Source: Heterodontus francisci
Lineage: Eukaryota
Assembly: GCF_036365525.1 (NCBI RefSeq)
Contig: NC_090392.1
Coordinates: 70,619,247 to 70,683,246 of the forward strand
DNA length: 64,000 nucleotides
Direction: 5' to 3'
A program made the translations under genes and the position numbers. The notes under the pieces are model-generated. The model did not search any database. It was not told where the DNA came from and saw only the letters and a list, made by a program, of their open reading frames with translations. Below, piece by piece: positions 7,926 to 61,887 of the stretch. Position 1 is the first letter of the stretch. Each line of letters begins with the position of its first letter.

Positions 7926-8389
7926 TCAGGAGGTACTCTTATCCTTCTGCTTCTCTTTATTGGTGTCTGCCGCAGGCTCTTGTGCCACGCGTGGCGATTC
8001 AACGTTGATTTTCACGTTGTTTACTTTGGGCTGGATTTCATCTCCTTTTCTCTGCGCCTCGATACACAAGATGCCGTCGTGGGACAGTGTTGACCGAACC
8101 AAAAGAGGGTCCACGTCCAGCGGCAGGATGTAGGTGCGTGTGAACTCTCGGGAGATGAAACCGTGACTGTCCAGTTTCTGCGGATGTCTTCCAGAAACCT
8201 CCAGCAGGTTGTCCACTGTCCGAACTGAGATCTCATCTGGCAGGAACTGGCAGACGTCCAGGAATACCTGAAATTTATGATGCTTTGTTTCAACCTTTGA
8301 AAAGCCTCGGTCCAGCTGTTTATTGATCCTGGGTCTGATATAGTAACCGTGGTACAATGTAGGAGCTAAAATATCTTCTGCTGACAAAC
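7926..8389 (-). CDS. HSPB2: Small heat shock protein HspB2, exon 2 (alpha-crystallin domain and C-terminus)
   Basis: Acceptor ttcctcag|G at 8390/8389. Encodes GLSAEDILAPTLYHGYYIRPR...FLDVCQFLPDEISVRTVDNLLEVSGRHPQKLDSHGFISREFTRTYILPLDVDP...LSHDGILCIEA, then stop. Joined CDS is 558 nt (185 aa). Confidence 0.95.
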
Positions 8390-9197
8390 CTGAGGAATTT
8401 ATTGCAAGTTATCGAACTGTAAACAATAGGACAATGTAACTTTATAATACATCATAGAACTACCTGTCAGATGCTATATTTTTGATAGATTAATGATTAA
8501 AATTAACTTAAGTTTTACATTCCAAACATCTGATTTGCTGATAAAATTCATCTAATTTGCTGTTCAATGAGGGGGAAAAATTCACATTTTTTAATTGAAA
8601 TTGTATTACATTACCTGCCCTGCTCCTGCTTCAGATCTCCACAGATCTCCACACACGCTGCATCATACATAGTGTGTACTTTCGTGTGTGACGCCAGTAC
8701 TGTAGATGTTCCCACTCCATCCCACCCCAAGTAAAATAAAATTGGTCTCCCAGCCACTAAATGCCACCTCCAATTACACAGCCAAGATCAGGGGCTAACT
8801 ATTGGAAAATCATGGGTACAAACCAGGGAATAGCGTGCTCGCCTTAAAGAGGAGGTTGGAAGGTTGCAAGCTGATTAAGATAAGTGAAGACTTGCAGGTA
8901 AAGAATGTTACAAGTTTTGGCAGCTCTGAAACATTATCCACCAAGAATCAGCGCTCCAAGAGGAGGGCAATTGAGTTAAACTAGAGAACAAGATCACCTG
9001 TAACTATTAATCAAGATCCAAATAGCATTCCAAAGAACACTGGGCATGTTCGCACTGTTAGCGTATCCCAGCATATTTCCGTCATCAGCCAGTTGTCAGC
9101 GTCTTACAATTAGAAGCAGTGAGGTTTTATGAGAAATTCACTAAGTCAGGCTATAAATCTATTGAAATGAACAGAGGCAAAGCCAAAATAAACTTAC

Positions 9198-11910: not shown

Positions 11911-12244
11911 GAATATCAACATATAGCAAAAAGAGGAAGCTAATTAACATATTTCATTAGTGTAGTTAATGATAAATGAAAGCAGCTTGTTCACAAGTTG
12001 TTAGTTTTGTTGCTTCAGTGGTGGATAACTTCTAAATTGGATCAAGGTCTATTAGCATCTACAACTTGAAATATCTGCAAACTAATGGGAATATTGATAT
12101 TTCCCTGTGGCTACTCATCCATGCATCCCATGAGGACCAAAAGTTTGGATGTCCGGCTTAACTTTATCTGAACATATTAATGCCCTGTAGACCCAGTATT
12201 AACAAAAATTCTGATAGCTGGTAATCTGAAAAAAAAACCCCCAC

Positions 12245-12430
12245 AGAAAATACTGGAAATGCGCAACAAGATTCATCAGCACCTGAAAAGAGGCAAATTA
12301 GTTTTGTGTTTCAGTTGAAACTCTTAGTCAGAACTGTTCTGACAAGGGATCCCAACTCAAAATGTTAACTGTTTTTCCCCCCATTTTAGTCACTGACTGA
12401 TGTGCTGTGTATTTTCAGCATTTTCTGTTG
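12245..12430. repeat. Decayed palindromic Penelope-like end repeat
   Basis: Degenerate version of the 42462-42694 element, centred on TCAGAACTGTTCTGA (~12329-12343). Confidence 0.45.
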
Positions 12431-13324
12431 GCATCGCAAAACCAATATTGTTCAATACATGACACTATGGTTGTATCACTTTGAACAGCCCACAGCAACC
12501 TGGAAATGGATTGACTGTGCAGTTCAATTTTTACATTCCCTTGATGGTTTAGCAAGGTTATCTGGTGTGTCTTATAGACTGGATGTATCCAATGTTATTG
12601 TTTTTGTTTTCATTCATGAAGGCAATAAACACAATGGTTTGAATCCTGCTTCAGCTACTGGGATAAGAATCAATCTCTGCTGTTGTCCCATCTTGTGTCA
12701 GGCCAGTGAATCCCAATGACACCAGGACAACGACAAGCAGCACTACTCTCCGCTGCACCCACCACCCCCTCACTCCCACCCCTGAGAAGGAGGGCATAAC
12801 TAATAACAGAAAATCGTGACCCAAATTGAATGTTTTTTAAGCAACAATTTGATAATTACAGTTAACAAAGCAGTCAAAATCCTGTGGTGTCCACTGGGAA
12901 CATACCAAAGATTGAAATATGGACAAGCAGAGATGCTTCTTGATATTCATACACATCCTGGACCGATGCAAAATGGATTTTGTCAGGGTCAGGAGCAGAA
13001 AGTCTCTGTTGCTGTAAAGATGAATATCATTGTACATGTAGAACATAGGTTTGAATCCTGCTGTGTTACATTCCTTTTCTAAATGAAACAATTTTGTGGT
13101 GGTTTCAATTTCATGTAAGGCTGAGCCAGCAAGGCAAGAATGATTAAAATTTGGAAATAATTGCAACTGATTTGAAATCTGAACTCATGTTAAGATGCAT
13201 TTTTGGAGCAGGTAAGATGAAGCTTTACTGTGGATCTGCTTGACATAAGATGCCAAAAGATTGGAAATTGTACTTCTCCACAGCACTAACATTCGTTAAG
13301 TTGTAAATTAATTTTAAGAAAGTT

Positions 13325-20446: not shown

Positions 20447-20781
20447 TTTATTTATTTTTTATTTTATTTATTTAGAGATACAGCACTGAAACAGGCCCTT
20501 CGGCCCACCGAGTCTATGCCGACCAGCAACCACCCATTTATACTAACCCTACAGTAATCCCATATTCCCTATCACCTCCCTACACTAGGGGCAATTTACA
20601 ACGGCCAATGTACCTATCACCTGCAAGTCTTTTGGATGTGAGAGGAAACCGGAGCACCCGGCGAAAGCCCACGCAGACACAGAGAGAACTTGCAAACTCC
20701 GCACAGGCAGTACCCAGAATCGAACCCGGGTCCCTGGAGCTGTGAGGCTGCGGTGCTAACCACTGCGCCACTGTGCCGCCC
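20447..20781 (-). mobile_element. HE1-like V-SINE
   Basis: tRNA-like head (TGGCGCAGTGG / GGTTCGATTCT) and a 3' tail GGGCCGAAGGGCCTGT shared with the CR1 3' end. Confidence 0.85.
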
Positions 20782-31290: not shown

Positions 31291-34200
31291 CAATGTAATG
31301 GTTTCCTGGATAATTGGGGCTCTTTCTGGGGTAGGTGGGACCTCTACAAACAGGATGGTCTTCACCTGAACCAGAGGGGTACCAATATCCTGGGGGGGAG
31401 ATTTGTTAGTGCTCTTCGGGGGGGTTTAAACTAAATCAGCAGGGGAATGGGAACCTAAATTGTAGTTCCAGTGTACAGGCTGTTGAGAGTAGTGAGGTAG
31501 GGGATAAGGTTACAGGGACGCAAGAGGGCACTGGCAAGCAAGAACTTAGTTTAAAGTGTGTCTACTTCAACGCCAGGAGCATCCGGAATAAGGTGGGTGA
31601 GCTTGCAGCATGGGTTGGTACCTGGGATCTCGATGTAGTGGCCATTTCGGAGACATGGGTAGAGCAGGGGCAGGAATGGATGTTGCAGGTTCCGGGATTT
31701 AGATGTTTCAGTAAGAACAGAGAAGAGGGTAAAAGAGGGGGGGGGGGGGGTGTGGCATTGTTAATCAAGGAAAGTATTACAGGGGCAGAAAGGACATTTG
31801 AGGACTCGTCTACTGAGGTAGTATGGGCCGAGGTTAGAAACAGGAGAGGAGAGGTCACCCTGTTGGGAGTTTTCTTTTGACCTCCGAATAGTTCCAGAGA
31901 TGTAGAGGAAAGGATAGCGAAGATGATTCTCGACAGGAGCGAGAGTAACAGGGTAGTGGTTATGGGGGACTTTAACTTTCCAAATATTGACTGGAAATAC
32001 TATAGTTCGAGTACTTTAGATGGGTCTGTTTTTGTCCAGTGTGTGCAGGAGGGTTTTCTGACACAGTATGTGGACAGGCCAACCAGGGGCGATGCCACAT
32101 TGGATTTGGTACTGGGTAATGAACCCGTCCAGGTGTTCGATTTAGATGTAGGTGAGCACTTTGGCGATAGTGATCACAATTCGGTTAGGTTTACCTTAGC
32201 GATGGGCAGGGACAGGTATATACCGCAGGGCAAGAATTATAGCTGGGGGAAAGGAAATTATGACGTGATTAGGCAAGATTTAGGATGTGTAGGATGGGGA
32301 AGGAAACTGCAGGGGATGGGCACAAACGAAATGTGGAGCTTATTCAAAGAGCAGCTAATGCGTGTCCTTGATAAGTATGTACCTGTCAGGCAGGGAGGAA
32401 GTTGTCGAGCGAGGGAGCCGTGGTTTACTCAAGAAGTTGAAGCGCTTGTCAAGAGGAAGAGGGCGGCTTAAGTTAGGATGAGACGTGAAGGCTCAGTTAG
32501 GGCGCTTGAGAGTTACAAGCTAGCCAGGAAGGATCTAAAGGGAGGGCTAAGAAGAGCAAGGAGAGGACACGAGAAGTCATTGGCGGATAGGATCAAAGAA
32601 AACCCGAAGGCTTTCTATAGGTATATCAGGAATAAAAGAATGATAAGAGTTAGAACGGGGCCAATCAAGGATAGTAGTGGGAAGTTGTGTGCGGAATCAG
32701 AGGAGATAGGGGAAGCGTTAAATGAATATTTTTCGTCAGTATTTACAGTAGAGAAAGAAAATGTTGCCGAGGAGATTACTGAGATACAGCCTACTAGGCT
32801 AGATGGGATTGAGATTCACAAGGAGGAGGTGTTAGCAATTTTGGAAAGAGTGAAAATAGATAAGTCCCCTGGGCCAGATGGGATTTATCCTAGGATTCTC
32901 TGGGAAGCCAGGGAGGAGATTGCAGAGCCGTTGTTGTTGATCTTTATGTCGTCATTGTCGACAGGAGTAGTGCCGGAGGACTGGAGGATAGCAAATGTTG
33001 TCCCCTTGTTCAAGAAGGGGAGTAGAGACAGCCCTGGTAATTATAGACCTGTGAGCCTTACTTCGGTTGTGGGTAAAATGTTGGAAAGGGTTATAAGAGA
33101 TAGGATTTATAATCATCTTGAAAAGAATAAGTTCATTTGCGATAGTCAGCACGGTTTTGTGAAAGGTAGGTCGTGCCTCACAAACCTTATTGAATTTTTC
33201 GAGAAGGTGACCAAACAGGTGGATGAGGGTAAAGCCGTGGATGTGGTGTATATGGATTTCAGTAAGGCGTTTGATAAGGTTCCCCACGGTAGGCTATTGC
33301 AGAAAATACGGAAGTATGGGGTTGAAGGTGATTTAGAGCTTTGGATCAGAAATTGGCTAGCTGAAAGAAGACAGAGGGTGGTGGTTGATGGCAAATGTTC
33401 ATCCTGGAGTTTAGTTACTAGTGGTGTACCGCAAGGTTCTGTTTTGGGGCCACTGCTGTTTGTCATTTTTATAAATAACCTGGATGAAGGTGTAGAAGGG
33501 TGGGTTAGTAAATTTGCGGATGACACTAAGGTCGGTGGAGTTGTGGATAGTGTCGAAGGGTGTTGTAGGGTACAGAGGGACATAGATAGGCTGCAGAGCT
33601 GGGCTGAGAGATGGCAAATGGAGTTTAATGCAGAGAAGTGTGAGGTGATTCACTTTGGAAGGAGTAACAGCAATGCAGAGTACTGGGCTAATGGGAAGAT
33701 TCTTGGTAGTGTAGATGAGCAGAGAGATCTTGGTGTCCAGGTACATAAATCCCTGAAAGTTGCTACCCAGGTTAATAGGGCTGTTAAGAAGGCATATGGT
33801 GTGTTAGCTTTTATTAGTAGGGGGATCGAGTTTCGGAGCCACGAGGTCATGATGCAGCTGTACAAAACTCTGGTGAGGCCGCACCTTGAGTATTGCGTGC
33901 AGTTCTGGTCACCGCATTATAGGAAGGATGTGGAAGCTTTGGAAAGGGTGCAGAGGAGATTTACTAGGATGTTGCCTGGTATGGAGGGAAGGTCTTACGA
34001 GGAAAGGCTGAGGGACTTGGGGTTGTTTTCGTTAGAGAGAAGGAGGAGGAGAGGTGACTTAATAGAGACATACAAGATAATCAGAGGGTTAGAAAGGGTG
34101 GATAGTGAGAGTCTTTTTCCTCGGATGATGATGGCAAACACGAGGGGACATAGCTTTAAGTTGAGGGGTGAAAGATATAGGACAGATGTCAGAGGTAGTT

Positions 34201-34393
34201 TCTTTACGCAGAGAGTAGTAGGGGCGTGGAACGCCCTGCCTGCAACAGTAGTAGACTCGCCAACTTTAAGGGCATTTAAGTGGTCATTGGATAGACATAT
34301 GGATGAAAATGGAATAGTGTAGGTCAGATGATCGGCGCAACATCGAGGGCCGAAGGGCCTGTACTGCGCTGTAATGTTCTAATTCTAATTCTA
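31291..34393 (+). mobile_element. Young CR1/HER1-like LINE: ORF1 esterase C-terminus plus complete ORF2 (APE endonuclease + RT)
   Basis: ORF1 end YKQDGLHLN...GLN* (SGNH DxxH motif). ORF2 is one frame 31431-34322 with two premature stops (31878-31880, 32469-32471). Motifs YFNARS, ISETW, MGDFN, SDH, QHGF, KFADD; (TTCTAA)n tail. Confidence 0.95.
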
Positions 34394-35360: not shown

Positions 35361-36404
35361 CATTTTCCTCTTCCACTTTACCCACTAAACAAGCCTATTA
35401 TTCGGGAACAAGAAGTGCTGGAAATACTCAGCAAAGTCTGGCAGCATCTGTGGAGAGAGAGAAGCAAAGTTAACGTTTCAGGTCTGTGACCTTTCATTAT
35501 TATGGCCCTATTATTCGCGGTATTAAATGGGCAAAGTTCCATTGGCTGCAAGGAGTCAACTTGTGGTTTCTCATGAGAAGTAGGGGGAAACCGTCTGCTG
35601 CATCCTAAACTTGCCTCCATAAATGACTTAAGCCATTCAGTGAGACTGAACCATTGAATAGTTAATTAACTAGAGTTCAGAACATCACAAATCTCTCTCA
35701 ACAGGAGATCAGCAGGGAGGCCTCTGTCACCTGTTTTGGAAGTCTGTGAATTTATCTTTTTCTCTTATTTACAGCATGCTTCACACATCACCTCTAGCCC
35801 CAAGAAAGAGCTCAGTAAAATGAACAATTACATCTATTAGGTACATGGATGATAGTATGAAGGGTATGTAGGTAGTTTGATCCTAGAATAGGTTAAAGGT
35901 TCGGCACAACATCATGGGCCGAAGGGCCTGTACTGTGCTGTTCTATGTTACACTCGATCTGGGAGAACTTCATGCTGCCTGGGTGTGTGAAATGTAAAGT
36001 GTTCTATTCAGCAGCACTAACAACCTTCAGCCTGATGATTAGCACATCCAACAACAACTTGCATTTATATGGCAACTTTAATGTAGTATAATAACCCATG
36101 GCGCTTCACAGGAGTGTTAATAACCATAATGCCACGATCCATGTAAGAAGATATTAGGGCAGATAGTGAAAATCTTGGGTCAAAGAGGTAGGTTTCAACG
36201 AGTGTCTTAAAGGAGGCAGGGAGGTTTAAGGACAGAATGCCAGAGTTTAGGTGGTGGAGTGATTAAAATTGGGGATGCTCAAGAAGCCAGAATGGGAGAA
36301 GCGCAGAGGTCTGAGAGAGTTGTAGGGCTGGAGGTAAGTAGAGATTGGGAGGAGTGGGTCCATGGAGGGATTTGAAAACAAAAAAAAGTAGCTGAAATAA
36401 ATGT

Positions 36405-36717
36405 ATTTATTTATTTAGAGATACAGCACTGAAACAGGCCCTTCGGCCCACCGAGTCTGTGCTGACCAACAACCACCCATTTATACTAACCCTACAGTAA
36501 TCCCATATTCCCTACCACCTGCCTACACTAGGGGCAATTTACAATGGCCAATTTACCTATCACCTGCAAGTCTTTGGCTGTGGGAGGAAACCGGAGCTCC
36601 CGGCGAAAACCCACGCGGTCACAGGGAGAACTTGCAAACTCCACACAGGCAGTACCCAGAATCGAACCCAGGTCCCTGGAGCTGTGAGGCTGCGGTGCTA
36701 ACCACTGCGCTGCCCCC
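36405..36717 (-). mobile_element. HE1-like V-SINE
   Basis: Near-identical to the 20447-20781 copy. Confidence 0.85.
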
Positions 36718-37000: not shown

Positions 37001-37379
37001 GTAAGGAGGTGATTCTGTTGGGGAAGAGGGGTTGTTTGATGTGCAGTGAGTGCGATAAAAGAAAAGTTGCACGTACTGCAATCTGAAATAAAAACTTGAA
37101 GTGCACATCAGCTCAATCAGTGTCTATCAGAGAAAGATTGGTTAATATTTGTTAGTATCTTTCATCCAAATTAATTTTCACCTAGTGATGCTTAGCAAGT
37201 GAAAAGTAATATCATGTTAGAATTATTCATTTAGGACATCTACAAAGAAATTAAAGGCACTTCTATCGGCTTCCACACCAGGATACTTTATGATGTAACT
37301 TCCAGTTCAAATCGACAGTAATCTCAGCTTCAAGACTGGCCAGCAGCTGCTGGTAATGATTCTGCTGTTGCAATTTGTA

Positions 37380-37660
37380 GCTGCACTCGATCCATCTTTT
37401 GTTTCTTGTTCCTTTACCACCCTTTTTTGCATTGCACAATCATCCTTTTTGTCATTTAATCACTCCTGCTTTCCACCCAACTACAGAGCTTTACTTTTGT
37501 CGTTTCACTCCCCTACCTCTGCATTTGCTTAAAACCTGTTACATCTCAAACTTTTTCCAGTTCTGATGAAAGGCGGTTGTCTTGAAATGTTGACTCTGTT
37601 TCTCTCTCTGCTGATAGAGGCTGCTGCCTATTTCCAGAATGTTTTCTGGTTTTACTTACC
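37380..37660 (+). mobile_element. Penelope-like element 3' end with degenerate hammerhead motif
   Basis: Longest member of the CTGATGA...GAAA repeat family (core at 37563). Confidence 0.5.
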
Positions 37661-38640
37661 GTTTCTCTGCGAGCTTGCACATTGTTAGAACTGAGTCATG
37701 CTGTAAGCAGTGATCAGTTTAATTTCAATGCTTTTGATAAATCTGCATACTGATCTGTTTTTAAAGGAGATGTTCAGTGGCAAGATGGTGGATTGATAAT
37801 TCTTTGTACCTTGGGTTTTATTGTGATAATCTAATTTGGCTTTTAAATTCTCCTACTTAAAATGACTCAATCACATGGTTCAACCATCAACAGGAAGCAG
37901 TTTGGTTGAAGTGCCATGTAACTCTTCTGTCACCCCAGAGAAGTTCAGGATTATTGGGTCACAAAAGAGATATGTTACAAACATCTACTTTATTTCATCA
38001 ATGAAACACAGGCAAACGTAACAACGATGAAATCATCAGCAACAGGACAATTATTGTGATATGGAATTTAAAAAAAAAAACACAGCATTTGCTGGATTCA
38101 ACTTCATGTATGTTCAGATTGAAGTGGCAGTCTTAGCACTGTTCATTTTAACATAGCGTAATGCACCAGCATTTGTAATTATTTAAACTTACCTAATTCC
38201 AGGAAATTATGCTCGATAAGTAGAAAAGAAAAAAAAGATTGAGTTTCTGAAGTCGTTTGGTGAGCAATATGATGAACTTAGAGGCTTGACTGGGAGCCTG
38301 TAACAGGTGGCAGCTCATTTACTAATGGAAAATCCTAACTGAGGTGGCACATCTAGACATAACAGGGTATGGTAATATGACATATCTGCTAATTTTAATA
38401 TAATTATAGGTAAATTGTATATTGTAACCTTGGAGCTGGGTGCAACATAAGATAGCATATCTCTTATGTTCAGTTTTGAGGATTAATAATATGTGCTTGG
38501 CAAAGTTAGCCCCTTCTAGTTTATTTGGTAATGAAATGGGTGTTGGCAACGCTCTAAATCTATCACACAATGTACATGGGAGACAGGAATCGATTGCAAT
38601 GGCATATTAATGCAGTGACTCCTTGACCATTATCTTTCAG

Positions 38641-40290: not shown

Positions 40291-40661
40291 GTAGGCGATT
40301 AGCAGGCTAATGCATGGCTACATGTCGTTCCCAATGTATTTTGCACGTAGCTGTGTGTAACATGGTTTCTGTATTCCTCATGATATCTGAGGAATCAAAT
40401 GCTGGAGCAGGCACCTTGAGAAAATGTTACAACCATTTTAATATCATAACAGTCAATGCTGTAAATGACCTTTGGTGATATTAGCACACACACCCCTGAC
40501 ATTCCAATGTCCACTATTTAAATGGGAGATGTTAACCCAAGTATCTGAAATGCATCTTATAATAATCCCCCCTCCCCATCTGCTCATTTAGCTGTCTATA
40601 AAGTTCTTATTGGATAATGTAAGATGCTGGTAGTATATATAAACCGTACATGATGGCAGTC

Positions 40662-41306
40662 TTTGATTTGATTTGATTTAGAGATACAGCACTGAAACAG
40701 GCCCTTCGGCCCACCGAGTCTGTGCCGACCAACAACCACCCATTTAGGGCAGCACAGTGGCGCAGTGGTTAGCACTGCAGCCTCACAGCTGCAGGGACCC
40801 GGGCTCGATTCTGGGTACTGCCTGTGTGGAGTTTGCAAGTTCTCCCTGTGTCTGCGTGGGTTTTCTCCGGGTGCTCCGGTTTCCTCCCACAAGCCAAAAG
40901 ACTTGCAGGTTGGTAGGTAAATTGGCCGTTATAAATTGTCACTAGTATAGGTAGGTGGTAGGGAAATATAGAGACAGGTGGGGATGTTTGGTAGGAATAT
41001 GGGATTAGTGTAGGATTAGTATAAATGGGTGGTTGATGGTCGGCACAGACTCGGTGGGCCGAAGGGCCTGTTTCAGTGCTGTATCTCTAATCTAATCTAA
41101 TCTAACCCTACAGTAATCCCATATTCCCTACCACCTCCCTACACTAGGGGAAATTTACAATGGCCAATTTACCTACCACCTGCAAGTCTTTGGCTGTGGG
41201 AGGAAACTGGCAGTCACAGGGAGAACCTGCAAACTCCGCAGGCAGTGCCCAGAATTGAACCCGGGTCCCTAGAGCTGTGAGGCTGCGGTGCTAACCACTG
41301 CGCCAC
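40662..41306. mobile_element. Nested HE1-like SINEs (plus copy ~40747-41105 inside a minus copy)
   Basis: Minus-strand tail 40662-40746, then a full plus-strand SINE ending in (TCTAA)n, then the rest of the minus copy. Confidence 0.85.
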
Positions 41307-41735
41307 TCTTTATAAAAGATCTGCATTTATACGATGCTTTTCACAACCCAAAGTGCTACTCAGCCAATGAACAGAGCAGCTATTCTAGATGTGGCAAAGT
41401 CCCACACAAAGCAATGAGATGAATCTTTGATGGGATGATTTTTGGCCAGGACAACCTCTTTTTAAAAAAATCTCCACCAGATCATACATTGATTTAACAT
41501 CTCATTCGACAATGCTACACTTCCTCAGCACTGTACTCAAAAATCAGCCTAGATTATGTGGGCAAGTCCTCATTCACACATCTCACTACCTTACTGTCAT
41601 GCTGATGATGTTGACTTTAAAGCTGAAACTCTCATTTTATATATCCACATGCATATCATGAGAAGCAGATTTCTCAAATTGCTTTGATTACAGTCCTTCC
41701 CTTGTAAAACATTTTAAATTGTATTTTTCTTTCAG

Positions 41736-41894: not shown

Positions 41895-42461
41895 GTTGAG
41901 TCGCAGAACTGCACGTCGCAAAAATAGAGATTTCGAGCCGCTGCTTAACTGTGTCGTCTGTGTTTGTTTGAAACGGTGACAAAGGTTAACTTCGCTATTG
42001 AAATAGCACGGAGAGCAAGTTCACTAATAAGGCTAGGCACTGTCAGAGAGCGCAAAAGCTTCCATTAAGTTCATTAGTTTCCTTGATTTCCTGAAAGGGC
42101 ATAATAGCCTTATGACATAGCTCAAACAGCTGTTATTTTACATAATATATGCATACCATCTGATCTGTTATTTCTTTACTTTTATTATACTTCTAAAATG
42201 ATAGTAACATTTTATTGCAGCATGATAAATTTTCTCTTTTGATGTTTATATCTGCTAACAGAAGAGAGGCTTTAGAAAATCATTGTGCAAGCAAGTGCAG
42301 ATATTAAAGAAAAGTGTTACAGGGATTCAAAACAATGATTTCATTCTGCAATTTATATATTTTTTCATCTCTTTTGCATATTTACCATAAGTTCCCCTTT
42401 ATAAGCATTAAATTGTTGCCAAGAATGATCATTAACCTCAACCTGATCATCACTTCTGTTG

Positions 42462-42694
42462 TAATAAAAACAAGAAATGCTGGAAATACTCAGCAGGTCT
42501 GGCAACATCTGTGGAGAGAGAAGCAGAGTTAACGTTTCAAGTCAGTGACCCTTCATCAGTCTAGTTCTGATGAAGGGTCACTGACCTGAAACGTTAACTC
42601 TGCTTCTCTCTCCACAGATGCTGCCAGACCTGCTGAGTATTTCCAGTATTTATTTCAAATTTCCAGCATCTGCAGTATTTTGCTTTTATTATGC
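42462..42694. repeat. Palindromic Penelope-like repeat with minimal hammerhead ribozyme motif
   Basis: ~85-bp inverted arms around TCTAGTT; plus arm AGTT-CTGATGA-A-GGGTC-ACT-GACCT-GAAA-CGTT-AACT (42563-42599). Confidence 0.75.
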
Positions 42695-42719
42695 CATTAC
42701 TTTTGTTGACTTTCTATTG

Positions 42720-42995
42720 AATGTTGTTCAGTTGTTGGGTGCTGATATGTGATTAAATATTGGCCAGGACACCAGGGACAACTCCTCTAGTCTTCTTAGA
42801 ATAGTGCCATGTGATCATTTGTGTCCACCTGAGAAAGCAGATGGGGCCTCAGTTTAACGTCTCATCTCAAAGACAGTACCTCTGACAGTGCAGCGCTCCC
42901 TCAGTACTGCATTGAAATACTAGCTTAGATTATGTATTTAAGTGGAACTTGAATCCACAACTTTCTGACTCAAAGAAGTGTTTCTACCACTGAAA
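42720..42995 (-). mobile_element. Deu-domain SINE (SacSINE1-like)
   Basis: Reverse complement of the 548-1010 family. Further partial copies near 26900-27040, 41320-41570, 46590-46855, 54950-55225 and 61140-61720. Confidence 0.65.
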
Positions 42996-43454
42996 CAGTG
43001 TTATCCACTGAGGTACCATGTGTTCTTATTTTATTCTGATGAAAGGTCATCGACCTGAAACATTAACTCTGTTTCTCTCTCCGCAGATGCTGCCTGACCT
43101 GCTGAATATTTCCAGCATTTTCTGTTTTTATTTCAGATTTCCAGCCGACTGTATTTTGCTTTTGTACAGTATTAGTGTTAATATTTTGTTTTGGCTGAGC
43201 CCTGGTATTTTGAGCCCCATTCACACCCTCCTCCTTTTTCTAAGAAACAGTATTTTGGAGTGCTCAAAAGAAAGATGGTGGAGTTCAATCCTACTGGCTT
43301 CAAAAACTGTAGCAGGAGAGGTGGGGAGCGCAGAGGTCGTGGTTACACTGAGAGAAGTATAAAGTGCTCACCTTGCCTTCAGTCATATTGAGATTGTACC
43401 TGAAACTGACACCTGCTTCAAGGATCTCTACTTTCATGTAGCAGTGAGGAGATA

Positions 43455-43779
43455 GAAACAGAGAGATACAGCACTGAAACAGGCCCTTCGGCCCACCGAG
43501 TCTGTGCCGACCAACGACCATTTATACTAATCCTACATTAATCCCATATTCTCTACCACATCCCCACCATTCTCCTACCACCTACCTACACTAGATGCAA
43601 TTTACAATGGCCAATTTACCTATCAACCTGCAAGTCTTCAGATGTGGGAGGAAACCGGAGCACCCGGCAGAAACCCATGCGGTCACAGGGAGAACTTGCA
43701 AACTCCGCACAGCAGTACCCAGAACCGAACCCAGGTCGCTGGAGCCGTGAGGCTGCGGTGCTAACCACTGCGCCGCCCC
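43455..43779 (-). mobile_element. HE1-like V-SINE
   Basis: Same family as 20447-20781. Confidence 0.85.
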
Positions 43780-44132
43780 AAATGCCACAGAAATGTCTTT
43801 CACTTTAACTGAAGCAGCCCTTGCGTAGCCAGAGAAGGTGGATTATTGGGCGATCTCAGCTCAGAGGCAGATGCTTGAATCCCCGCTAATTTCTGGAAGA
43901 CGACACGACCTATCGGAGCTGCTGGTACAACAGTAATGGTTGACTATGCACCAGAAGCAGGTCCAATGTCCATTGTGTGGAGATGGTCCCACGATTTGCC
44001 CTTGCAAGACTGCATCAGCGGCTCTTGTTCTCAGCCAGTCCATCCTCCTCGCAGACCCTTGTTCGAGAACCTCTAAACTAGAGAAATATAGGCCTTTTAC
44101 TATTGTTCTAACAGAGTTTTTAATCATTGCAG

Positions 44133-50385: not shown

Positions 50386-51506
50386 TGTGATGGAGTCTGT
50401 GGTTGCAAAACTTGTTTTCTGTAGTCCCAACCTGAGAGGGGAAACTAGAATTGAAACGGAAACTGAAACAGAAGCTGGGGAAAAACCTCCAGGTTTCTGG
50501 GGAAACTGACACTGGTTGGAACCAGATAAAAGGAGACAGAGTTTTCCCCAGACCAGGCAGGAATGGAGCACTGGCAAGCAGAACAAAGTGAAGACTGAAT
50601 CCAGGAACTGTTTCTATTTTTATTTATTTTATTTAGACATACAGCACTGAAACAGGCCCTTCGGCCCACCGAGTCTGTGCCGACCATCAACCACCCATTT
50701 ATACTAATCCTACACTAATTCCATATTCCTACCACATCCCCACCTGTCCCTATATTTCCCTACCACCTACCTATACTAGGGGCAATTTATAATGGCCAAT
50801 TTACCTATCAACCTGCAAGTCTTTGGCATGTGGGAGGAAACCGGAGCACCCGGAGGAAACCCACGCAGACACAGGGAGAACTTGCAAACTCCACACAGGC
50901 AGTACCCAGAATTGAACCCGGGTCGCAAGAGCTGTGAGGCTGCGGTGCTAACCACTGCGCCGCCACTGTTGCTTAAAATAGCTGACTAACCAGACCCAGC
51001 TGTATAGTGTACAGGTTGTCACTGAAGGACTTGGATAAAGGAAAGACTGGTAAATCCATGCTATCGAGACTGTCGTGAGCAGACCTGAGGAGGATCTGGA
51101 GAAGTGTGCCTTGTGGTGAAGACTGCACCCTTGGAGTTCGGATTGAGAGGGAACTGCTGTTGGAAGAAGAACAGAGGCTAAATCCTTGAAGAGAGGAACT
51201 GAAAATCTACTTGAGGAACTTCAGAGTTCTGAAGAACTGTGTGACTGTAATTGTGACCATATATGCTGGATGGACTGACCAGTGAAACCATCTCTGTTGT
51301 ATCTGATAGTTAAGATATAATTTGTAATCTCGACCATGACCTGTCTCGCGTCATCTTTAATTTATGTTGGTTTTGGTTAGAGTGTTAAAGTAAAATCTAT
51401 AAAAGTGAAGTCTTGTCCATTTGTTTTTTGGTTTCCTAAATTGAGTTCAGTCAGTGAATACGTTTTTTTTTTGGATTTGTTGGTGGTCTCCACAGGGAGC
51501 CTAACA
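50386..51506 (+). mobile_element. Solo LTR interrupted by an HE1-like SINE
   Basis: TGT...ACA termini with 4-bp TSD TACT (50382-50385, 51507-51510); AGTAAA near 51388. Confidence 0.55.
50615..50966 (-). mobile_element. HE1-like V-SINE
   Basis: Same family as 20447-20781. Confidence 0.85.
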
Positions 51507-59164: not shown

Positions 59165-59879
59165 GTAAGTCAATGCAATTTATCTAATAGCCTATAGTGT
59201 TCCTATTTTGATAATTTTAAAAAAGAAATGCTAATGCTGGAAATTTGAACAGGAACAGGAAACACTGGAAAATATGCAGCAGGTAATTCAGCACTGATGA
59301 ACTAAAACCATAATGTTTTGAGTATAGAGCATTAGAATTGTTGTCCAATCTCACAAAAGTCCTGCACCCACAATATTAACCTATCCTTTCAGGTGCTGAT
59401 CGGACCTGTTGTCTATTTAGAGCATTTTCTGTAGCTTTTTTTTTAAACGAGCGTTTTAAAATAAGTTTAAAAATAGACCCTGTTCTTTTCTCCCCAGAAT
59501 CTTCAGTTGATGGCCTTTCATCAGATCAGTTCTGGCGGAAGGTCATTGACCTCAAACGTTAACTCTTGTTTCTCTCTCCACAGATGCTAGCAGACCTCCT
59601 GCGTGTTTCCAGAATTTTCTATCTTTATTTCAGATTTCCAGCATCAGGAGTATTTTGCTTTTGTGTTGACATGGAATTATTCCGACTGTGGGTGGAAGGG
59701 CAAGAATCTGTTATCCCATCTTTCCTTAGCTGGTCTAAAATAATCCTGGAGGAGTAACAGAACCCTGTAAACTTTAAATGATGAGAATTTGTAAAAAGTA
59801 TTTAATTTGACTGATTTTAAGCTGTATAATTGGATCATTATTCATTTTCATGTTAACCAGTCCTAGTTAAGGTGCAATG

Positions 59880-60600: not shown

Positions 60601-61887
60601 TGCGATATTTCACGCTTGTAGTCAGTGGGCAGGAACTCGAGCCCAAGGTTCCATTGGAGTGATTCTAAAATTCTTCAAATTTTGCGATGGGAAGAAAACT
60701 GTCGAACTTTGTGCAACCTTGAATTTCTTCAATATTCATTAGTCAAAAAAAATCTACATTTGTGAAGCAACTTTTTTTTTTCTCTACATATGATGTAAAG
60801 ACTTTTTTAAAAAGTCTGTTGCAATGCAAATGCTAATTAATTCTTTATTTTTAAAAAAACACCATTTTTCAAATAAAAATTCTGCCAATCTCATTTTCTC
60901 CCTTGCCTTGCTGTACTGTTACTCTGCAGCTCTGTCCCCTTGCAATATGTTGCCGATTGCTCATTTAACAGTAACAAGTTAAGCTGTTTTTTTTCCCGCA
61001 GGGTGTACCCCAGTCCAACCAGGTCCTGTCCTCACCCAGTTTCCACAAGTGCACTTCCAATGGTTACTGACGAGTGATTGGGAGTGAAAACTTTGGCAGA
61101 TATTTTTGTTTCTCCTCTCTACCTCAGTGCACTGAAAGAAAGACTTTGCATTTCTATGGTGCCTTTCATGACGTCAGGACATCCCATAGCACTTATAGCC
61201 AAATGTGTGCCTTAGAATTGTAATAACTGCTGTGATGTAGGAAATGTGGCAGCCAATTTGTGCATAGTAAGATCCCACTAACAGTAGTGAAATAATGATC
61301 AGATAATTTCTTTTAGTAATGTTGGTGGAAGGATAAATATTGGTCAGGACACTGGGTAGAATAACCCTGCTGTTCGTTGAATAGTGCCATGGGATTTTTT
61401 ATGGGATGTGATTGTTGCTGACTAGGCCAGCATTTATTGCCCATTCCTAATTCCCCATGAGAAGGTGGTGGTGAGCCGCCTTCTTGAGCTGCTGCAGTCC
61501 ATGTGGTGTAGGTACACCCACAGTGCTGTTCGGTTGGGGTGTTCCACCTGGGAGAGCAGGCAGGGCCTCAGCGTAATATTGTATCTGAATCACTGCACCT
61601 CCAACAGTGCAGCACTCCCTCAGCCTAATATTGTGCTCCAGTCTCTGGAGGGCGTTATAGGGCTTGAACCCATAATCTTAAGATTTAGAGACAAAAGTGT
61701 TACCAACTGAGCCACAGCTGACACTGAGGCCAATTGAGTGTCTCTGCCAACACCCAACTGAGAGTTAATGGAACCGTGAGCCAGGATCAAACCTAGGACA
61801 ACCCCATTCCGTTTTATATGGCTCAGCTAATCATATTTTAATTTGATTAATATATCACTGAAAGTATATACGCTGGTTGTGTTCTAG

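Follow-up and report, generated by a model that had tools for sequence, protein, structure and literature searches.

Insertions of Penelope-like elements (PLEs), as described by Arkhipova et al. 2013 (PMC3846280) and Craig et al. 2021 (PMC8557442), contain head-to-head, inverted and 5'-truncated copies of the pLTR with palindromes at the junction, bear a tail of 30-40 bp at one end only, and are accompanied by duplications of 8-10 bp. For Poseidon of the green anole, Frangieh et al. 2024 (PMC11167929) place the tail between two reverse-transcription start sites and report that both target strands are cut and extended. Cervera and De la Pena 2014 (PMC4209133) report opposite-strand pairs of minimal hammerheads 100-700 bp apart and, in Drosophila virilis, an intron that ends at helix I. 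Cutting by the minimal hammerheads in the literature is weak even in dimers or requires the protein of the element (PMC4209133, PMC11167929). Of nine frog hammerhead dimers tested, eight showed no cutting. A preprint by Li et al. 2026 (10.64898/2026.07.22.740005) describes non-LTR retrozymes, which were found in the one chondrichthyan sampled, and PLEs are reported as expanded in introns of the whale shark. Further literature was drawn on as well (10.1101/443036, PMC6765202, PMC6155905, PMC5753468). In this literature, how inverted pLTRs come about and what the hammerhead does for PLEs remain questions, and the family described here is therefore useful.

Our subject is a palindromic element in intron 4 of FDXACB1, located in a window of 64,000 nucleotides (the whole stretch of DNA that was analysed, to which all coordinates refer). 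We consider it likely that the element is a single, dead-on-arrival insertion of an endonuclease-positive PLE, in which the hammerhead-bearing 3' pLTR end was laid down head to head and the hammerhead is predicted to be sequestered. The motif itself is real, the insertion is of a kind already described, and at the level of the family there is a testable mechanistic lead. The single locus is of little weight, being one decayed insertion among many.

Host gene and genomic surroundings

FDXACB1 is encoded on the plus strand, and its intron 4 runs from the donor at 41895 to the acceptor at 44132, with the hammerhead-bearing arm of the element in sense orientation. Between the donor and the element there are 568 nt, and between the element and the acceptor 1,443 nt. 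Placement in this intron, as proposed in the earlier note, is borne out by the gene model: exons 1-3 match BMT5-like, exon 4 was taken from an open frame and joins exon 5 in frame, and the last exon matches FDX-ACB.

Other repeats are found nearby. Intron 3 (40660-41310) holds inverted and nested copies of another abundant short repeat, which also occurs near 20460-20780, 36400-36710, 43460-43770, and 50620-50960. A different stretch, 42754-42935, belongs to an abundant repeat that begins about 50 nt to the right of the element and has copies near 650-807 and 61334-61623. On the minus strand, long and near-intact reverse-transcriptase frames occupy 31410-34322 (RVT_1 in 32472-34322), which we take to be a CR1-type LINE, and an exon of an HSP20/alpha-crystallin gene is found at 7926-8408.

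Anatomy of the palindrome

The element contains two inverted arms of 88 nt, at 42472-42559 and 42567-42654, which are 95% complementary with four differences and stand 7 nt apart; the near-perfect arms and 7-nt spacer described earlier from the letters alone are thus confirmed. The 261-nt stretch at 42448-42708 folds at -166.7 kcal/mol (z -24), and none of 200 shuffles folded as well. Beyond their paired parts, the arms are unequal. The left arm, read on the minus strand, is an end module without the tail (42463-42559) that stops at the short 3' end of the family; it keeps the hammerhead core, has lost helix I, and yields no minus-strand match to the hammerhead descriptor. The right arm, on the plus strand, lacks about 10 nt of family sequence near 42646-42651 in its paired part (42567-42654) and extends 36 nt further, to about 42690, through an optional tail (42655-42690) that window alignment places in this arm only. 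Behind 42689-42690, family reads diverge from one another in the read mapping. Between the arms, the 7-nt centre (42560-42566) ends in four native letters, 42563-66, which form the 5' strand of helix I, while its first three letters, 42560-62, match neither the upstream body of the family nor the other two 7-nt centres in the window. The two arms are mutual nearest relatives, with 97% identity over 80 columns compared to at most 91% for other window copies.

Two other accounts of such a structure were considered. Four substitutions, one gap, and the tail set the arms apart, which makes a fold-back artefact of sequencing unlikely. None of the reads or contigs listed for the mapped region (42556-42900) spans the element's own centre within 42463-42690. 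Terminal inverted repeats reaching both ends, as in a MITE or other non-autonomous DNA transposon, were not found, because the 36 nt at the right end have no partner on the left.

Flanking the element is an imperfect 14-bp direct repeat, which the earlier note had suggested as a possible duplication of the target site and which is present at the stated positions. Its left copy (42448-42461), 1 nt from the left end of the element, and its right copy (42695-42708), about 4 nt from the right end, are identical at 12 of 14 positions, a score that random right flanks equalled in 37 of 2000 draws (and in 13 of at most 300 draws in a smaller scan). With this modest support, the repeat is probably a real, aged target-site duplication.

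A minimal hammerhead motif in the right arm

The hammerhead motif is real. It occupies 42563-42599 on the plus strand and is recognised by descriptor, by layout, and by agreement with the published consensus for the minimal type I. Helix I pairs 42563-66 with 42596-99 and is followed by CUGAUGA (42567-73) and an extra A (42574); helix II pairs 42575-79 with 42583-87 around a loop of 3 nt, with a closing G-U instead of G-C; and GAAA (42588-91), C-G, and U complete the core, with a predicted cut after U 42595. Each part of the layout that had been claimed for the plus arm was found at its expected position. The descriptor for minimal hammerheads has its sole match here among both strands of the 64 kb and matched once in 200 simulated windows of that size. 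Moreover, the motif combines the features of PLE minimal hammerheads, namely CUGANGA with an extra base, helix II, GAAA, a palindromic 15.2-16.2, UH, and a helix I of at least 3 bp. The proposed check against Rfam failed to recover it: hammerhead models were absent among 21 matches at E<=10, and nothing in the window reached a gathering score. The microRNA and 23S-methyl models among the Rfam matches, all below their gathering scores, were set aside as generic likeness to a long hairpin.

Variation among copies was assessed from eight aligned window rows and from read tables, which give counts per position with no linkage between positions. The closing pair of helix II is G-U here and A-U in five of the eight rows, and C is found at 42587 in 11,897 of 31,129 reads (38%). 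Pairing in helices I and II is retained in 79% of cells across the rows, compared to at most 47% when the partners are slid. Changes on both sides of a helix number one, from an old and uncertainly aligned copy, and 189 of 500 shuffles of the eight rows reach that count. Within the core, position U4 (42568) is C in 7,592 of 19,646 reads mapped from run X21 (39%), and U7 (42571) is A in 10,244 of 21,724 family reads (47%). Either a sizeable subfamily departs from the canonical core, or the remaining copies have undergone CpG decay. In the reads with C, 42568 and 42587 would each fall in a CpG, and the T found there in other copies may accordingly be a product of decay.

An AUG within the core is unlikely to serve as a protein start, because the frame that it opens stops within the element's own arm and U7 is so often A (those 10,244 of 21,724 reads). 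A 40-residue query from this frame gave two candidates and no match.

One copy of a very abundant repeat family

We built a profile from seven window copies, which returned 24 matches in the window at E<=10 and 13 at E<0.01, the seven seeds included. Four read runs (X21, X22, X12, and X1), of which X12 is from another organism, were mapped on 42556-42900, that is, the right arm and its flank. In X21, 60,394 of 11,989,820 reads (0.5%) mapped there, mostly on 42563-42690, as did 16,259 of 13,967,370 reads in X22; the element thus belongs to a repeat that exists in very many copies. Of the sampled words, 0.28-0.52 also occur in RNA-like runs, which was not counted as evidence of expression because the repeat is so abundant.

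The module is the 3' end of a longer repeat, since 12,244 reads of X21 continue upstream of 42563 as loose ends (depth is 19,646 five bases further on) and their consensus, at an agreement of 0.7, resembles what precedes the window copy at 37563. This older copy (37530-37660, plus strand) retains the upstream body and thus the native 5' context. In shark genomes, the upstream body presumably leads into a GIY-YIG region. In the 64-kb window, three frames upstream of the long copy gave no Pfam match. Toward the 3' side, family copies stop at two sites about 36 nt apart.

Both solo and paired copies are present in the window. A solo copy with the tail lies in the same intron (43034-43163, plus strand), and is 90% identical to the right arm across 87 nt, shows 87% complementarity with the left arm, and has its helix III palindrome and helix I broken. 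Another solo copy, near 35405-35506, is flanked by a perfect 11-bp duplication (equalled in none of 2000 random draws). The region of the latter (35394-35517, minus strand) comprises about 100 nt of family sequence with some 9 unrelated bases at the 5' end. Head-to-head pairs occur at 12205-12435, 42463-42690, and 59235-59435, and each of the three has one short and one tailed end; the count covers pairs with both ends recognisable and excludes a weak candidate at 37076-37665 (E 0.28). In a fourth pair, at 59506-59664, the left arm is reduced to a 24-nt stub. The three pairs other than the element differ in age. A spacing of 7 nt is common to three pairs, the element and those at 12335 and 59528, with differing letters.

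Inversions recur in the family, because other copies fold back at a different site, the centre of the helix III palindrome at 42593 (78 reads with 59 starts in X21, and one contig in X12). Among the 15 joints listed of 428, none is of the type of the element's centre. Loose ends of X12 contigs before 42597 were examined as possible truncations at the cut site and rejected, because their consensus has a terminal G in place of the A of the window, as would suit a subfamily variant. Pattern scans for relatives in prokaryote and viral collections yielded two single matches, in a ribosomal-protein region of a bacterial contig and in a bacterial genome, which were attributed to chance; viral contigs gave none.

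Origin of the inverted arms

The element has the anatomy of a PLE insertion, with an inverted, 5'-truncated, head-to-head copy and a single-ended tail, here of 36 nt. We suggest that its formation would have begun, as the literature on PLEs indicates, with a PLE protein nicking AT-rich DNA and reverse transcription starting at the tail. Synthesis would then have covered about 130 nt and halted at the 5' edge of helix I, and a mirror copy would have been made either through a U-turn on the newly made strand or through second-strand priming from the other start site. The product seen in the sequence combines a short end and a tailed end with a duplication of roughly 14 bp. We infer, with three pairs at hand (n=3), that the inversion arises at insertion, through such a U-turn or through priming from both start sites. 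Against reading the element as a PLE insertion, the duplicated 14-mers do not match fully and stand about 4 nt off, and neither the three frames upstream of the long copy nor the 40-residue query tied a PLE reading frame to the family. The earlier note had proposed a non-autonomous, ribozyme-bearing Penelope derivative; the hammerhead is of PLE type, and both its consensus and the anatomy of the insertion uphold a PLE origin, but a distinct unit that moves as a palindrome is not supported, given the longer upstream body in many reads, the solo copies with their own duplication, and the three differing centres.

A dedicated non-autonomous element of this kind, in which PLE proteins would move a whole master hairpin of about 230 bp, is quite unlikely. 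The identical 7-nt spacing of three pairs also fits a common master copy, and exactly this distance between cores recurs in three pairs within 64 kb; the probable duplication flanks the whole unit, and nine of ten alignable arms are without the upstream body within 0-5 nt of C3. Against it, this young copy departs from the most symmetric of the centres at three of seven letters, while its own arms differ at 4 of 88, a discrepancy with a binomial probability of 0.0004 to 0.026 at 2.3-10% decay, although loops may mutate faster. In addition, long-bodied and solo copies are common, and an RNA hairpin so stable could not fold the ribozyme.

A history in two steps is very unlikely. Here a solo insertion would have been followed by a local inverted duplication that made the mirror arm, or the arms would have been homogenised by gene conversion, which could account for their high identity. 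The arms are indeed 97% alike in the core, above any other pair in the window; the pair at 59506-59664 carries a left stub of only 24 nt; and long palindromes are unstable. Opposed to this, the left arm retains letters of the family consensus that are missing from the right arm (the 10-nt gap, and a C at the position of 42647 that is present in 68% of reads). The left arm also finishes at the short end of the family, and the layout of one short and one tailed end is repeated in three of three pairs.

Folding and fate in the host transcript

Folding predictions for the right arm alone give helix II a probability of 0.91-0.96 and helix I one of 0.15-0.32. In the whole element, these fall to between 5e-19 and 2e-16 for helix II and to about 1e-36 for helix I, and in a transcript ending at 42599 helix II is likewise at most 2e-16. 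The ribozyme fold is predicted to be absent even in the nascent transcript because the antisense arm is transcribed first. It had been anticipated that the hairpin would compete with ribozyme folding; this understates the prediction, in which the fold is absent outright (helix II at most 2e-16). In the sense neighbour at 43036, helix II is kept, the helix III palindrome is lost, and helix I has a probability of 0.0. Cleavage of FDXACB1 pre-mRNA by the hammerhead is therefore unlikely, since the fold is predicted absent, the neighbour is broken, and published minimal hammerheads are weak or protein-dependent. The hammerhead would be an inherited PLE motif. In host pre-mRNA it is computed to form part of the 88-bp hairpin, where it most likely stays inactive.

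A duplex of 88 bp is a plausible ADAR or Dicer substrate, and editing of this one is plausible. Use of the hairpin or ribozyme by the host, for editing, as small RNA, in the control of FDXACB1 splicing, or for intron cleavage, is nevertheless extremely unlikely, for although an 88-bp near-perfect duplex with 49 A within its arms lies in a transcribed intron and is matched by Rfam hairpin models (generically, and all below gathering scores), it is one among many copies, lies at the distances given above from donor and acceptor, carries private decay, has its ribozyme sequestered and as its sole sense neighbour a copy with helices I and III broken, and is flanked by unique sequence (42712-42735) on which X12, from another organism, has a depth of zero, with no conservation seen. 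For annotation, such stumps resemble microRNA hairpins and intronic ribozymes and are probably neither.

Boundaries of the module as possible marks of template ends

If the element is a PLE insertion, its shortest relatives could be informative about the template. We tentatively put forward, as an unlikely idea, that the shortest insertions mark the ends of PLE templates, with one boundary at a fixed, acceptor-like edge of helix I, where the enzyme would make a U-turn in a fixed 7-nt register with error-prone letters, and a second boundary at the hammerhead cut site. Concerning the first boundary, nine of ten arms that could be aligned at the core lose the upstream body within 0-5 nt of C3, a count that excludes older arms without a recognisable core. 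The native upstream sequence (37540-37562, 42563-42566) ends in pyrimidines followed by CAG, two bases before C3, and is acceptor-like. Two further acceptor-like sites are found downstream in the module, and many family copies keep the body; the acceptor-like appearance of the edge could be due to chance, because the module holds these two additional sites.

Concerning the second boundary, a 68-nt tandem unit spans the distance from the predicted cut site to the short 3' end (window 42594-42646), with the short 3' end joined to 42594-42596 in 1,720 reads of X21 that have 248 starts and comprise at least four variants. This unit is absent from runs X22 and X12 and present in one contig of X1, and it could be a single satellite that arose on one occasion by way of a 2-nt microhomology. 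The literature covered, mostly open-access and outside Repbase, contains no account of this hammerhead repeat family or of a fixed fold-back register.

Should both boundaries hold genome-wide, the DNA itself would testify that the PLE cycle involves splicing as well as hammerhead cleavage in vivo, and the choice between self-priming and twin priming would be decided. With this many short fold-back copies in one genome, a purely computational test is available through their centres, 5' ends, and tandem joints.

Comparison with known systems

The element may be likened to newt satellite 2, which is also non-coding, PLE-derived, and hammerhead-bearing. The hammerhead of the element shares with the PLE minimal hammerheads of Cervera and De la Pena 2014 (PMC4209133) a 4-bp helix I, CUGANGA with an extra base, a U-rich flank, a helix II that opens with G, GAAA, the C-G palindrome, and UH. 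It differs from their consensus in its closing pair, which is G10.1-C11.1 there and G-U here, though G-U also occurs in several of the published rows. The opposite-strand pairs in that paper lie 100-700 bp apart, whereas the cores here are separated by 7 nt, and the rows examined of its Fig. S3 include no cartilaginous fish.

With endonuclease-positive PLE insertions, as described in PMC3846280 and PMC8557442, the element has in common the inversion, the palindrome at the junction, the one-ended tail, and the short duplication. In those insertions the inverted piece adjoins a longer element, whereas here both pieces are the last 100-130 nt, with no reading frame. Poseidon of the green anole, as described by Frangieh et al. 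2024 (PMC11167929), has two alternative 3' ends about 100 nt past its hammerhead, as this family does, and its cutting and extension of both strands could yield a two-armed product like the present element. The Poseidon hammerhead cut only with protein and was dispensable for insertion in vitro, whereas the family described here is known from sequence alone.

Non-LTR retrozymes, described in the preprint of Li et al. 2026 (10.64898/2026.07.22.740005), are likewise non-coding, PLE-derived, and hammerhead-bearing. At this locus, the two or more head-to-tail units with a whole hammerhead each that characterise retrozymes were not found, the arms being head to head with one whole motif. In retrozymes, tandem head-to-tail units allow the hammerheads to fold as dimers, while in the element described here the units stand head to head and folding is predicted to be blocked.
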